Counted from the first letter of the stretch, positions 39,231 to 42,655 are shown. The stretch is DNA of 64,000 nucleotides from an uncultured Bacilli bacterium (GCA_910587325.1 CAJUKB010000002.1:32349-96348); one strand, 5' to 3'. The notes: generated by a model from the letters alone, not told the origin. Numbers and translations are program-made.

Positions 39231-39713
39231 TCATATTTCTTTGCAAATGTATCCTAAAATTTCAATGTCCTTAATATAATCGTTTAAAGGTTCATCATTA
39301 TTTACATAATTCTCAAAATTTACAGGAATAAATGTTTTAGAACTATAAGTCTTCATTAATTTTTTTTCATCTATCTCTTCATCAAAATCGTTTTTACTTT
39401 CTCTTTCAAGTGAATCAAATCCTAAAACATTCGTAAATTCATACTTCTCTTGTGTTAAAAAATTAGTCATTTCTATATCATCTTTAATCTTAAAAGAAAT
39501 GCTGTAAATTGATTTATATTTTCCTAAATCTTCATCATCAATGCTTCGGAAATCAAAAGATTCCCAGTCTGTTTTTTTTTCACACAGATATTCTTTTGTC
39601 TTTTTGTCCAATTTGGTTTCATTTTGCTTGTTTATATAGAAATATACACCGATAGCACTAATTAACGCTAATAGAATTAGAATAAATATAATTATTTTCT
39701 TTTTATTTTTCAT
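39231..39713 (-). CDS. Hypothetical N-terminally anchored membrane/secreted protein
   Basis: A single N-terminal TM segment (IIIFILILLALISAIGVYFYI) followed by an acidic domain. Its ATG lies 8 nt downstream of the pilin-like gene's stop codon. Confidence 0.5.
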   Translation of the reverse strand: MKNKKKIIIFILILLALISAIGVYFYINKQNETKLDKKTKEYLCEKKTDWESFDFRSIDDEDLGKYKSIYSISFKIKDDIEMTNFLTQEKYEFTNVLGFDSLERESKNDFDEEIDEKKLMKTYSSKTFIPVNFENYVNNDEPLNDYIKDIEILGYICKEI

Positions 39714-39721
39714 TTTCCCTC

Positions 39722-41167
39722 CTAGTAATAACAGATATTGTTGCTTTTATTTAAAGTTCCGCCATAAGGGCATAAAAAGCATGTATATTTTTCTTTCTTA
39801 GTTCCATACTTCTTAGCATCACACTCAGTATAATACCAATTGCAATGACAATCTTTAGGTCCGTCACATCCCCCTTTATCCTCACCATTGTGATCTTTTT
39901 CACTCCAAGATCCACATCTGTTTTTGCATCTTGGAACTTCTCTTTCACATGTGCTTTGAACAGCAGGATAGTTATGCTTTACTTGAAAAGTTACACTACT
40001 TATTACTCCAGAATTTGCTATTGCTGTACAAGTAACAGTATATACGCCTGATTTTTTACTTACCGTCGGATTACAGCTTACTTTTCCAACTCCAGAAGAA
40101 CCCCAAGTCACATCTATATTATTTACAAAGTCATAATCGCTATTTCCTAAGGTTAATGGATTTTTTTTAGCTGCGATTTTTGGCGGAGTTTTATCTATAT
40201 TTTTTATTTCAAATTTCTTTGTACTTACATCTTCTGAAACATTTCCTGCATTGTCTTTTACGCATACATAATAAATGCCATTATCTTTATAAGTTTCAAA
40301 ACTACTGCTATTATTAGTTTCATACTTTACTTCATTGCAATTCGAATTTGAGCCTACATAATATCCATAAATTCCAGAACCATTTCCATCATTTGCAGTA
40401 ACTGTTACTTTTTTATCTTGGGAAGTATATTCATTTTCACTCTCAATAAAAGTCTCATAAATTACAGGCCTTTGTTTATCTATTTTTACTTTTACTTGTG
40501 CTTGATACATTGTTCCATCACTTAATTCTATTGTGACAAAATACTCTGTATTTACTATTTGTTCTGCTATAACTAAATATTCATTTTTACTAAAGAAATC
40601 TCCACTTATATCTCTTGTTTCTTGTCCTATATTTGATTGCCATGTGATTTTTTTAATATCTTCTACGTTTATTTTTTCTCCAATATATGCTTCCAAAATA
40701 ACATTTTTATTTGTCCAAGTATTTTCTTCTATTTTTTCCCCTTTTGTTACATTGTCACTAGTTGCATAAATGTTAATTCCCAAATTTTGATTTTTTATCA
40801 CTAAATTATCTAAGTTGCATTCTTCTTCTTCTGAATATTCTCCATATAAGTTGTTTTCTTCTTTTCTTATACTGACAATATGGCAATTTAGTCTACTCCC
40901 ATCAATCGGACTTTTTACATTTCCTTCTTCATCATCTGCATCTATATATCCTAATTTCACTAAATTGTCTACATTTGTTAAAAGGTTTCCTGTATCGTTT
41001 GCATAATCACTGGCTTTTGTTTCTATATAACTTACTAAGTTTTCGTGTGATTTTTCTTTTACATTTTTAGATATTTTTCCGTATCCACTCACCGCTATTA
41101 ATATAATAATTGCTAAAACTACAATTACTCCTAATAATTCTACAAGTGTAAAACCTCTTTTTTTCAT
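39722..41167 (-). CDS. Prepilin-type N-terminal cleavage/methylation domain protein (481 aa pseudopilin-like, Cys-rich C-terminus)
   Basis: MKKRGFTLVELLGVIVVLAIIILIAV is a class III (G|FTLxE) signal. Beta-rich middle region (GSGIYGYY, VKDNAGNVS). The last 82 residues contain 13 Cys. Confidence 0.75.
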   Translation of the reverse strand: MKKRGFTLVELLGVIVVLAIIILIAVSGYGKISKNVKEKSHENLVSYIETKASDYANDTGNLLTNVDNLVKLGYIDADDEEGNVKSPIDGSRLNCHIVSIRKEENNLYGEYSEEEECNLDNLVIKNQNLGINIYATSDNVTKGEKIEENTWTNKNVILEAYIGEKINVEDIKKITWQSNIGQETRDISGDFFSKNEYLVIAEQIVNTEYFVTIELSDGTMYQAQVKVKIDKQRPVIYETFIESENEYTSQDKKVTVTANDGNGSGIYGYYVGSNSNCNEVKYETNNSSSFETYKDNGIYYVCVKDNAGNVSEDVSTKKFEIKNIDKTPPKIAAKKNPLTLGNSDYDFVNNIDVTWGSSGVGKVSCNPTVSKKSGVYTVTCTAIANSGVISSVTFQVKHNYPAVQSTCEREVPRCKNRCGSWSEKDHNGEDKGGCDGPKDCHCNWYYTECDAKKYGTKKEKYTCFLCPYGGTLNKSNNICYY

Positions 41168-41254
41168 AATTACTCCTCCAAATTATATTTAAATTATACC
41201 CCAAATTAATCCAAAATAAAAGAGAAACGTATTTCTATGTCTCTCTACCCATGC

Positions 41255-42655
41255 TTATTTTTCTTTGCTTTTTCTATTTTGTCTTTTAGCTATAAATACA
41301 CCTATTCCAATTCCTAAAATCAAATCCACAACCGCAACTACTTTTCCAACTATGTCTTTGCTTACTTCTTTATCCATTAAAGGAATTTTAATGGTATCTT
41401 TTTTCTCCTCTTGTTTTTCTTCTATACTCTCTATTTGGTCTTCTTTAGTTTCTACATTTTGGAGACTATCACTATTTTTATTCGTTTCTTCGTTTTCTAC
41501 ATTCACTTCAATATTAGAACTATTATTATTTTCCTCTTTAGAAGCACTACTTTGACTATTTTTGTTTGCACTTGTTGCATTATTTTTATTTGTAGAAGAA
41601 TTTACATTCGTTGTTGAGGAAGAAGAATTAGCGCTATTAGAAGTACTTCCTGCATTCGAGTTATTTTCTTGGATGATGTTAAATAAATAACTATTTTTGG
41701 TTACTCCATCTTCTGCTGTAATCGTTAATTTACAAGTTTTAGTGCCATCTGCAATTGTACAAGCTTTACTTGTATGGTTTTGTTTATTACTATTAGTGAT
41801 AAAAGTAAAATATAAACTGCTGGCATTTTTATTCATTTTCACATCATATTCATGCGTATTAGGATTAAAAGTTTTGGTTAAAGTTCCACCATGTACTACT
41901 AAATTTGAAATACTTGCATCTGTGGACAACGTATTATTATAAACATTTTTACGTGTCACAGTAATCGTATAAGTTTTTTGGTTTCCTGCTTCCGCCTCAA
42001 CAACAATCTTACAAAGATTAATACCTACTTTTAAAGAACAAGTGCTTCCACTAATCACTTTGGCTTTACTATTGTTAACAATTGGGTTCCATTTTATAGA
42101 ACTAACCTTGTTATTTACAGTAATGCTATAAAGTTCTAAACTAGGATTAAATTTTGGAGATATACTTCCACTACTTGGAGTAATGGATTTTAAAGTGGCG
42201 TCTTTACTAATGCTACATGTTTCATCATAAGTCGATTTTGATACAATACTACCATTTTCTCCAAAATAATTTCCATAAGAATCTTTGACACATTTATTTA
42301 ATTTATAACTTAAGTTATGGACGGTATATTCACTATTATCAGTCATAGTAACTTCTATAGTTGCTACAGTGTAAGAACCTGTCATGCTTCCATTACGATA
42401 AAAATAGAACGTATTATTATTTCCTGTTTTATTTAGCCAAGAATTGCTCATCGTAATTTTGGTGATTTTTCCATTTGTTACTCCAATACTACCACTAATG
42501 GTATTTAGTTTGATGTTATCCACCGTCAATGTAAATTCATAGGTATTATTTGAGGTTTTCACCGGATGATTAAAACGAATTTCTCCTGCATTTACTAAAA
42601 CAGGCAATAACAAAAAGATAATCATTCCAATTAGATAATTTTTGATTTTTTTCAT
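41255..42655 (-). CDS. Surface protein: signal peptide, cohesin-like domain, two cadherin-like beta-sandwich domains, S/N-rich linker, C-terminal TM anchor
   Basis: Signal peptide LLPVLVNA|GE. Two repeats of the L.S[IL]....G.[IL][ST]P.F.P....Y.[IV] type (DATLKSITPSSGSISPKFNPSLELYSITV; DASISNLVVHGGTLTKTFNPNTHEYDVKM). C-terminal anchor LILGIGIGVFIAKRQNRK. Confidence 0.65.
   Translation of the reverse strand: MKKIKNYLIGMIIFLLLPVLVNAGEIRFNHPVKTSNNTYEFTLTVDNIKLNTISGSIGVTNGKITKITMSNSWLNKTGNNNTFYFYRNGSMTGSYTVATIEVTMTDNSEYTVHNLSYKLNKCVKDSYGNYFGENGSIVSKSTYDETCSISKDATLKSITPSSGSISPKFNPSLELYSITVNNKVSSIKWNPIVNNSKAKVISGSTCSLKVGINLCKIVVEAEAGNQKTYTITVTRKNVYNNTLSTDASISNLVVHGGTLTKTFNPNTHEYDVKMNKNASSLYFTFITNSNKQNHTSKACTIADGTKTCKLTITAEDGVTKNSYLFNIIQENNSNAGSTSNSANSSSSTTNVNSSTNKNNATSANKNSQSSASKEENNNSSNIEVNVENEETNKNSDSLQNVETKEDQIESIEEKQEEKKDTIKIPLMDKEVSKDIVGKVVAVVDLILGIGIGVFIAKRQNRKSKEK

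Follow-up and report, generated by a model that had tools for sequence, protein, structure and literature searches.

The 64,000-nucleotide stretch of DNA analysed here, hereafter the window, belongs to an uncultured Bacilli bacterium (GCA_910587325.1, CAJUKB010000002.1:32349-96348) and carries, at positions 39,231 to 42,655, a cassette of three genes located between gpmI and the S10 ribosomal protein operon. The second gene encodes a protein of 481 residues that is, judged by profiles and predicted fold, a genuine type IV pilin with a true class III signal, prolonged by three Ig-like domains and a Cys-rich C-terminal module. This protein is probably a modular minor pilin acting as an adhesin on a type IV filament whose genes would lie in another part of the genome, with a variable, disulfide-rich tip and a dedicated partner, the 160-residue product of the third gene. 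An earlier sequence-only reading of the window had proposed an adhesin anchored by a pilin and ending in a disulfide-rich part, a proposal that the present analysis supports. The protein would add a new, unannotated family to a known kind of pilus adhesin instead of defining a new system, and is as such plausible rather than surprising.

The class III signal and the pilin module

The N-terminus of the 481-residue protein reads MKKRG/FTLVELLGVIVVLAIIILIAV, i.e., a short basic leader ending in a glycine, followed by a phenylalanine at position +1, a glutamate at position +5 and a hydrophobic stretch (MKKRG/FTLVELL). The segment KRG/FTLVELL had been recognized as a class III signal by the sequence-only reading, and it scores above the cutoffs of both PF07963 (26.4 bits for a cutoff of 21.2) and TIGR02532 (22.1 for 16.3); the profile search, which might have returned an ordinary signal anchor, returned a true class III signal. 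In an alignment of 49 sequences, F6 and E10 never vary, and conservation reaches 90% or more at G5, C95 and C117. The motif [KR]GF[TS][LI]VEL is kept in nearly all 117 homologues, down to 28% identity, a few of them being truncated at their N-terminus or having the glycine replaced. As the signal motif is kept while the remainder of the protein diverges, its retention indicates that both the peptidase site and Glu5 are under selection.

The profile built from the 49 sequences matches solved pilins of the PDB past the membrane segment, among them Geobacter PilA-N (E 2e-9) and Streptococcus sanguinis PilE1 (8pfb, E 8e-8, profile positions 11-91). An AlphaFold2 model built with the alignment has a mean predicted local distance difference test score (pLDDT) of 89. 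Its pilin part exhibits a 52-residue α1 helix (8-59) and strands within residues 63-115 (pLDDT 81-94), forming a small β head that extends to residue ~122 and harbors the conserved C95-C117 pair. Two hallmarks of a type IV pilin are present: a class III signal and, in the model, an extended α1 on a β head with a conserved Cys pair. The size of 481 residues, noted earlier as far larger than that of ordinary pilins, is correct without being unusual. Modular pilins, defined by an N-terminal pilin module joined to one or several domains non-specific to pilus biology (Raynaud et al. 2021, PMC8179133), comprise more than 1,200 proteins in 264 architectures, some of up to 860 residues, and members as large as the present one are documented (PMC8179133).

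The best NCBIfam match of the protein is ComGC (NF040999, E 3e-11, 43.3 bits, residues 4-79), and its short basic leader is of the Com/type IVa kind. Both features would fit an extended ComGC-like pilin that serves DNA uptake as a subunit of the competence (Com) pseudopilus. Such an assignment is very improbable: the score lies well below the equivalog cutoff of 75, the likeness is confined to α1, no comG neighbours were found in the window, and an Ig stalk with a hypervariable Cys-rich tip or a thrombospondin type 1 (TSP1) tip points to ligand binding over DNA capture.

The Ig-like stalk and the exchangeable distal end

Beyond the pilin module, the AlphaFold2 model comprises three β-sandwiches and a terminal module (Table 1). 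Foldseek comparison of residues ~123-399 with the PDB returns tandem-Ig adhesin stalks (E 5e-7 to 2.5e-4, identity 9-14%), the neighbours being GhpA (9flv), SiiE (2yn5), SGBP-B (6e57), RTX adhesins (6xi1) and SraP (4m00). With three Ig-like domains and a Cys-rich module that are not specific to pili, attached to a pilin module, the protein has the architecture of a modular pilin.

The last 82 residues contain 10 cysteines (C407 to C479), and not 13 as previously counted, out of 16 in the whole protein. Extracellular disulfides are suggested by the Cys counts, as these are even in most family members. The tails of 17 relatives open with V-[KR]-H-x-Y-P-A and close with C-P-x-G-G-[TS]-L...C-Y-Y; the hypervariable stretch between these two motifs contains 10-16 cysteines, and the tail is the most variable part of the pilin. 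Whether it might be a known domain had been left for verification by the sequence-only reading: searches of Pfam and of solved folds return no match. The TSP1 models (PF00090, PF19028, PF19030; W-x-x-C-S-x-x-C-G-x-G) do not match the tail of the window's protein; they do match 9 of the 49 family members, which carry a different distal cassette. Sister proteins carry TSP1, HYR or Big_13 domains according to Pfam.

Comparison with close relatives illustrates the conserved and variable parts of the pilin. Its identity to protein P0002 is 81% in the pilin module, 79%, 83% and 62% in the first, second and third Ig-like domains, and 43% in the tail; the third Ig-like domain and the tail are wholly missing from many relatives. 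In protein P0004, the pilin module and the first Ig-like domain are 97% and 92% identical, respectively, to those of the window's pilin, but the distal cassette is a different one, in which a thrombospondin type 1 repeat is clear (WSSCSKSCGGG), P0010 and P0016 being similar. The pilin core is conserved and the distal modules are swapped, either the third Ig-like domain with the Cys-rich tail or thrombospondin-type repeats. Adhesion by the extra module would be suggested, indirectly, by this distal end, where variability is greatest and which alleles exchange.

To note, P0004 is a paralogue or an allele at L091:592-3878, where it adjoins IS110-type (Transposase_20) fragments, and its true start, MKKRGFTLVEL, was overlooked by the gene caller. 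A mobile-element origin of the pilin was also considered, and was rejected: no relatives are present in phage or plasmid collections.

The partner protein

The product of the third gene had been described as an N-anchored acidic protein of 160 residues starting 8 nt after the pilin gene, which coordinates and composition bear out (32 Asp and Glu for 20 Lys and Arg in the ectodomain). Its relatives are few. A word-indexed search with the 160-residue protein returned only two, and an exhaustive phmmer search of 1.84 billion representatives only 17 clusters, nearly all of 150-200 residues; no match was found in Pfam, NCBIfam, PADLOC or the PDB sequences. In the alignment of this family (A7), C44, G64, F74, F93 and G98 are invariant and C157 is near-invariant, and the C-terminus displays the motif Y-[IL]-x-x-L-x-x-x-G-Y-x-C. 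The A7 hidden Markov model (HMM) identifies a partner gene directly after large pilins in four loci (L008, L010, L013, L091) and yields a further match in L031. Jackhmmer started from the 160-residue protein alone found no homologue in the loci; only the A7 profile, derived from the exhaustive search, revealed them. The C-terminal motif occurs in 11 of the 1707 open reading frames (ORFs) of the fetched loci, ten of which directly follow a large pilin gene, the eleventh (L059) being located ~3 kb downstream of one. More distant pilins likewise precede small N-anchored proteins. The partner of P0004 had seemed unrelated to that of the window (BLASTP E 0.29), a view that was rejected once the A7 profile recovered the partner in L091.

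The partner family is narrow and fast-evolving. As the partner follows pilins at this locus and at other sites, the pairing conserved across the family is that of pilin and partner, and not that of pilin and cadherin-like protein, the product of the first gene of the cassette. The sequence-only reading had paired the pilin with this stalked neighbour, which holds for the present locus but not family-wide.

Distribution of the pilin family and conservation of the locus

The pilin had been called an orphan; it belongs, instead, to a large family present in metagenome-assembled genomes (MAGs) of gut Bacilli. A word-indexed search of 5.8 billion proteins identified 117 relatives in protein databases, mostly of 480-840 residues. 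A scan of one genome per species with an alignment as query yielded at least 288 relatives, while a scan of genome contigs with the single pilin protein as query yielded none. In the loci read in detail, 80 of these at least 288 and all from species other than that of the window, the source is almost always, as for nearly all the relatives found, a MAG of uncultured gut ‘Bacilli’ or ‘Tenericutes’; the hosts are rabbit, mouse, human, chicken and ruminants.

The order spo0A – (unknown) – gpmI – cadherin-like – pilin – partner – S10 is also observed in L008, L013, L094 and L095, with a tandem duplication of the pilin-partner pair in two of them. Relative to the window, S10 is 88-94% identical in these four loci, gpmI 69-78%, the cadherin-like protein 45-51% and the pilin 38-61%, and the partner is undetectable by tblastn. 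As this arrangement recurs in four other loci despite their diverged contents, the cassette is a stable feature of the clade with fast-evolving contents, and no strain-level accessory insertion. The term ‘accessory’ used for it earlier does not fit a cluster holding the same position in at least four other species.

This conservation also bears on whether the pilin could be a decaying or non-functional orphan, left after the loss of the pilus machinery. Two points would favour such a relic: machinery genes were not found in the window, and the uncultured gut MAGs of this lineage, which carry the labels Bacilli or ‘Tenericutes’, probably include some reduced genomes. We regard it as scarcely credible. 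The window sequence is identical in the MAG contigs GCA_950079075.1 and GCA_948716395.1 and in several Logan assemblies; the cassette ORFs are intact, identical in the 24 contigs read (several samples), and each preceded by a strong Shine-Dalgarno site. The locus is conserved across species, the signal motif strictly so, the Cys pairs are conserved as well, and the tandem duplications point in the same direction.

Other family members are also located amid core genes, such as one between spo0A and gpmI in L022. In L005 (8025-14282), a 797-residue family member lies between nusG and rplK, with arylsulfotransferase-like genes (PF05935) on both sides; in the same locus (19478-20974), rplL and rpsL are separated by the inserted gene of a glycine-rich ALK_LTK_GRD protein. 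Surface-protein genes are repeatedly found within ribosomal-protein gene regions in these genomes.

Pilus machinery and the case for a filament

Several points weigh against a pilin carried by a filament and acting at its tip. No gene for a prepilin peptidase, a T2SSE ATPase, a T2SSF platform protein or a major pilin is detected in the window, neither by motif scan nor by tblastn with PilB, PilT, TadA, TadB, TadC and PilD as queries; the sequence-only reading had reported the lack of peptidase, ATPase and platform genes, and the scans agree. Most family members, the window's included, are not adjacent to machinery genes. The role of the partner is a guess, as this protein belongs to no recognizable fold or family. 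Finally, a strict tip position is not implied, since Glu5 is invariant in the present family and the tip pseudopilin GspK lacks it. A six-frame motif scan of the 64 kb detects no second class III motif. Nor is a Flp-type motif present in the window: Flp/Tad pilins display G/XXXXEY in a protein of 50-80 residues, and the motif here is G/FTLVEL.

Assembly genes are found close to some relatives. A family member of L023 (195 bits, HMM positions 4-392) is located 51 nt downstream of a TadZ-TadA-TadB-TadC-like operon formed by a ParA-like/TadZ gene, a T2SSE gene and two T2SSF genes. PilB-like ATPases are present in L046, L050, L055 and L058, and in L050 and L058 they stand beside short GFTLVEL pilins, amid housekeeping genes. 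In these genomes, the genes for type IV filaments are evidently dispersed.

Two rumen Bacilli MAGs illustrate such assembly loci. In L023 (5807-13255), the last gene of the operon is that of the family member, which is 1089 residues long. The locus L084:9021-19339 encodes a Flp-like pilin (G/QALVEY), TadE-like proteins, a TadZ-like ParA, a TadA-like T2SSE and TadB/TadC-like proteins, and harbors several GFTLVEL-type pilins, the modular ones being 504 and 470 residues long.

The class III signal might also be a cleavable anchor or export signal only, in which case the Ig stalk would span the Gram-positive wall, like the N/S-rich stalk of the 466-residue neighbour, and display the distal module without any pilus. 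Archaeal substrate-binding proteins, which carry class III signals, provide an analogy. The host encodes Spo0A, GerQ, an LtaS-like enzyme and FtsEX with an M23 peptidase, and is a walled, spore-forming monoderm, the kind of cell in which such a display is conceivable. No machinery is located near the gene in the window or in most relatives, the neighbouring 466-residue protein is also membrane-anchored and stalked, and the membrane-anchored partner could hold the pilin at the surface. This filament-independent display is nevertheless rather unlikely. Glu5 and the whole of α1 show the same conservation as those of polymerising pilins, filament-forming pilins are matched by the profile, one family member closes a Tad-like assembly operon, and a prepilin peptidase would still be required.

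A proposed mode of action

In the favoured reading, a modular adhesin on a type IV filament, a prepilin peptidase encoded elsewhere in the genome would cut after Gly5 of MKKRG/FTLVELL. The hydrophobic α1 would then dock the protein in a type IV filament, which would be driven by PilB or Tad-like; the most likely place is the tip of this filament or its vicinity. Held out by the filament, the stalk of three Ig-like domains may extend over an estimated ~10-15 nm and would present at its end a β-hairpin knob stapled by disulfides, which would bind a gut ligand belonging to the host, to mucus or to another microbe. The distal part, either the third Ig-like domain and the knob or thrombospondin-type repeats, would be exchanged and would diverge fast, as expected of a binding or antigenic end. 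The 160-residue protein, putatively coupled by translation, would be a dedicated extracytoplasmic partner, serving the distal module as a chaperone or docking factor, or else acting as a cofactor that is secreted or displayed together with the pilin. The cadherin-like 466-residue protein may be an adhesin in its own right, membrane-anchored and stalked, whose gene is found at this locus in the present clade.

A bolder version can be formulated. In uncultured gut Bacilli, pilin and partner might make up an adhesin system that is self-contained and swaps cassettes, a speculation to which we give little credit. Equally tentatively, the tips of this system, carried by a conserved pilin and Ig stalk, could be interchangeable, hypervariable and disulfide-rich, including eukaryote-like thrombospondin repeats that mimic the host matrix. 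That a fast co-evolving membrane partner folds, guards or completes the tip, and that a classical pilus is perhaps unneeded, is just as doubtful. If this version holds, the CPxGG...CYY knob would constitute a new ligand-binding fold.

The uncultured Bacilli concerned, whose surface biology is hardly charted, are common inhabitants of the guts of animals and humans. The present family provides them with a plausible tip for a host- or mucus-binding organelle, built on a conserved core and a variable tip, and extends the catalogue of modular pilins in monoderms. The unassigned Cys-rich tip, the swapping of TSP1 cassettes and the partner gene are worth following up, the latter being a simple experimental handle. 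In these genomes, proteins with a class III signal are scattered beside core operons, apart from their machinery, which also matters for pipelines that annotate pili by gene neighbourhood.

The cadherin-like neighbour

The 466-residue product of the first gene has 120 homologues, its orthologues being ~435-480 residues long with an unchanged layout. The signal peptide, the two cadherin-like domains, the Ser/Asn-rich stalk and the transmembrane anchor (Table 1) confirm most of the architecture proposed by the sequence-only reading. PF12733 covers two stretches of the protein (E 8e-10, 39.5 bits for a cutoff of 24.2) and matches 28 of 31 orthologues. The proposed cohesin-like domain is not confirmed: Pfam Cohesin (PF00963) matches neither the 466-residue protein (E<=1) nor any of the 31 orthologues (E<=0.1), and when five cohesin-bearing relatives are compared by hhalign, the alignment is confined to the cadherin part (residues 98-244). 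The assignment of the N-terminal domain as a cohesin is thus supported by neither method. To note, this domain (42206-42586) bears a weak resemblance to avidin (E 0.016-0.1, residues 56-136) and contains the avidin-like patterns W-x-N-x-x-G-x-N and G-x-[FM]-T-G-[ST]-Y; the resemblance is probably due to chance.

A three-gene surface complex, in which the N-terminal domain of the 466-residue protein would bind, as a cohesin does, the pilin tail or the partner, would account for the order of cadherin-like protein, pilin and partner being kept at the gpmI/S10 locus in five species. It would also echo the distant relatives of the 466-residue protein, which harbor a true Cohesin domain at the equivalent, N-terminal position. 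We hold such a complex to be improbable, as the protein and its 31 orthologues give no cohesin signal, no dockerin-like motif was found, and pilin-partner pairs occur elsewhere without a cadherin-like gene (L010, L012, L016, L017, L020, L091). Moreover, a hairpin with a U-run and a TATAAT box part the 466-residue protein gene from the pilin gene. This hairpin is weak, and together these elements could be a partial terminator and an internal promoter.

Layout and boundaries of the cassette

ORF calling in the gpmI-to-rpsJ interval finds on the minus strand three co-oriented ORFs of 466, 481 and 160 residues, as described by the sequence-only reading, all upstream of the S10 promoter. The gaps from gpmI through the three genes to rpsJ are, in order, 25, 87, 8 and 462 nt. 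The G+C content is ~30% across the AT-rich window, without a compositional break at the cassette.

Table 1. Features of the cassette and of its flanks, ordered from gpmI to rpsJ (positions in the window; residue numbers of the encoded protein)
Feature	Position	Residues	Strand	Remarks
gpmI	42681-44186			upstream flank of the cassette
466-residue surface protein	41255-42655		-	
Signal peptide	42587-42655	1-23	-	...VNA/GE
N-terminal β-rich domain		24-150	-	no family assignment
Two cadherin-like β-sandwich domains		~151-328	-	PF12733
N/S/E-rich stalk		~329-432	-	22 N and 20 S in 105 residues
C-terminal transmembrane anchor	41282-41350	436-458	-	followed by basic tail KRQNRKSKEK
Hairpin and U-run	41213-41245		-	3' of the 466-residue protein gene; hairpin 41222-41245; RNA fold dG -14.2, z -1.8 (weak)
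TATAAT box	41193-41198		-	ahead of the pilin gene
481-residue modular type IV pilin (predicted)	39722-41167		-	
Leader MKKRG	41153-41167	5 residues	-	
Pilin module	40802-41167	1-122	-	α1 helix 8-59, small β head, conserved C95-C117
Ig-like 1	40472-40801	123-232	-	AlphaFold2 β-sandwich
Ig-like 2	40193-40471	233-325	-	AlphaFold2 β-sandwich
Ig-like 3	39971-40192	326-399	-	AlphaFold2 β-sandwich
Cys-rich C-terminal module	39725-39970	400-481	-	three β-hairpins predicted by AlphaFold2
160-residue partner	39231-39713		-	start codon 8 nt past the pilin stop; N-terminal membrane anchor or signal, acidic ectodomain of ~120 residues
Terminator-like hairpin, then U-run	39170-39206		-	3' of the 160-residue protein gene; dG -14.8 kcal/mol, z -2.56
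S10 promoter	38925-38930 (-35); 38902-38907 (-10)		-	TTGCAT, 17-nt spacer, TAAAAT
S10 leader	38785-38891		-	with promoter 38785-38930; cassette boundary, outside the cassette
rpsJ (S10)	38460-38768			downstream flank

The cassette lies upstream of the S10 operon and is separate from it, since S10 possesses its own promoter and leader and a hairpin with a U-run follows the 160-residue protein gene. This hairpin escaped the consensus terminator scan because of its long loop; the consensus scan for promoters and terminators was in any case uninformative, with 45 sites for 41 expected. The S10 promoter and its leader of ~140 nt are almost unchanged across five species. The leader scores 21.9 bits with the S10-Clostridia leader RF03136, below the gathering score of 35.1, and may be a divergent form of it in this Bacilli clade; no Rfam family matches anywhere in the window at gathering score.

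Several observations concern the surroundings. The glycolytic gene row is broken by an ABC transporter (48384-50210) between gap and pgk, and by spo0A (45587-46366) and the gene of a 396-residue protein (44238-45428) between tpi and gpmI; eno is not the next gene after gpmI in the window. The 396-residue protein is conserved in L013 and L095 and has no Pfam or NCBIfam match. Ribosomal protein L3 (37624-38439) carries an acidic, E/T/V-rich C-terminal extension of an estimated ~60 residues, also found in L008 and L013. On the minus strand, 8617-9141 encodes a 174-residue N-anchored ORF without Pfam family.

Comparison with known systems

ComGC resembles the pilin of the window by its short basic leader and its similar α1. 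It is, however, ~100 residues long, devoid of extra modules and encoded in the comG operon, and the 43 bits obtained are below the cutoff for this family. Tandem-Ig adhesin stalks, such as those of SiiE, GhpA, RTX adhesins and SraP, share the rod-like extender architecture, but these proteins are secreted and anchored by the type I secretion system, sortase or other routes, and not by a pilin module.

TcpB, of the toxin-coregulated pilus (TCP) of Vibrio cholerae, is a large tip minor pilin, with a pilin module followed by β-rich domains on a linker, and secreted partners exist for it (TcpF) as for CofB (CofJ). The likeness with the present pair resides in a large minor pilin functionally coupled to a small, separately encoded protein. 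These two systems are, in contrast, type IVb, belong to diderms and are encoded inside the pilus operon. Neither sequence nor detected fold relates them to the tail or partner found here, and the present partner has an N-terminal anchor and a conserved Cys pair. CofB, the large tip pilin of the CFA/III pilus of enterotoxigenic Escherichia coli, also resembles the window's protein in possessing a pilin module followed by β-rich domains on a linker (PMC8179133).

The Tad-like clusters of uncultured gut Firmicutes (TANB77, PMC11680825) and those of L023 and L084 belong to the same habitat and to similar uncultured gut lineages. In these clusters, the genes of a T2SSE ATPase and of the platform precede those of several N-anchored pilin-like proteins, and the L023 operon ends with a member of the window's family. 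The gene of the window is, however, detached from any such cluster, and the pilin-like proteins of TANB77 are 143-236 residues long and not modular giants (PMC11680825).

Close parallels in design are PilB and PilC of S. sanguinis, which carry a vWA and a lectin module, respectively (PMC8179133; PMC9934059). They also belong to a monoderm Firmicutes, possess a class III signal and a small pilin module with bulky C-terminal modules, and are ~50 kDa each, PilB being an adhesin of 50.5 kDa (PMC8179133); the presumed role, adhesion presented by a filament, would be the same. In the present protein, the grafted modules are three Ig-like domains and a Cys-rich hairpin knob instead of vWA or lectin. 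The window gene is located outside a pil locus and is followed, as apparently always in the family, by that of a small non-pilin partner, and its distal modules are swapped between close alleles.

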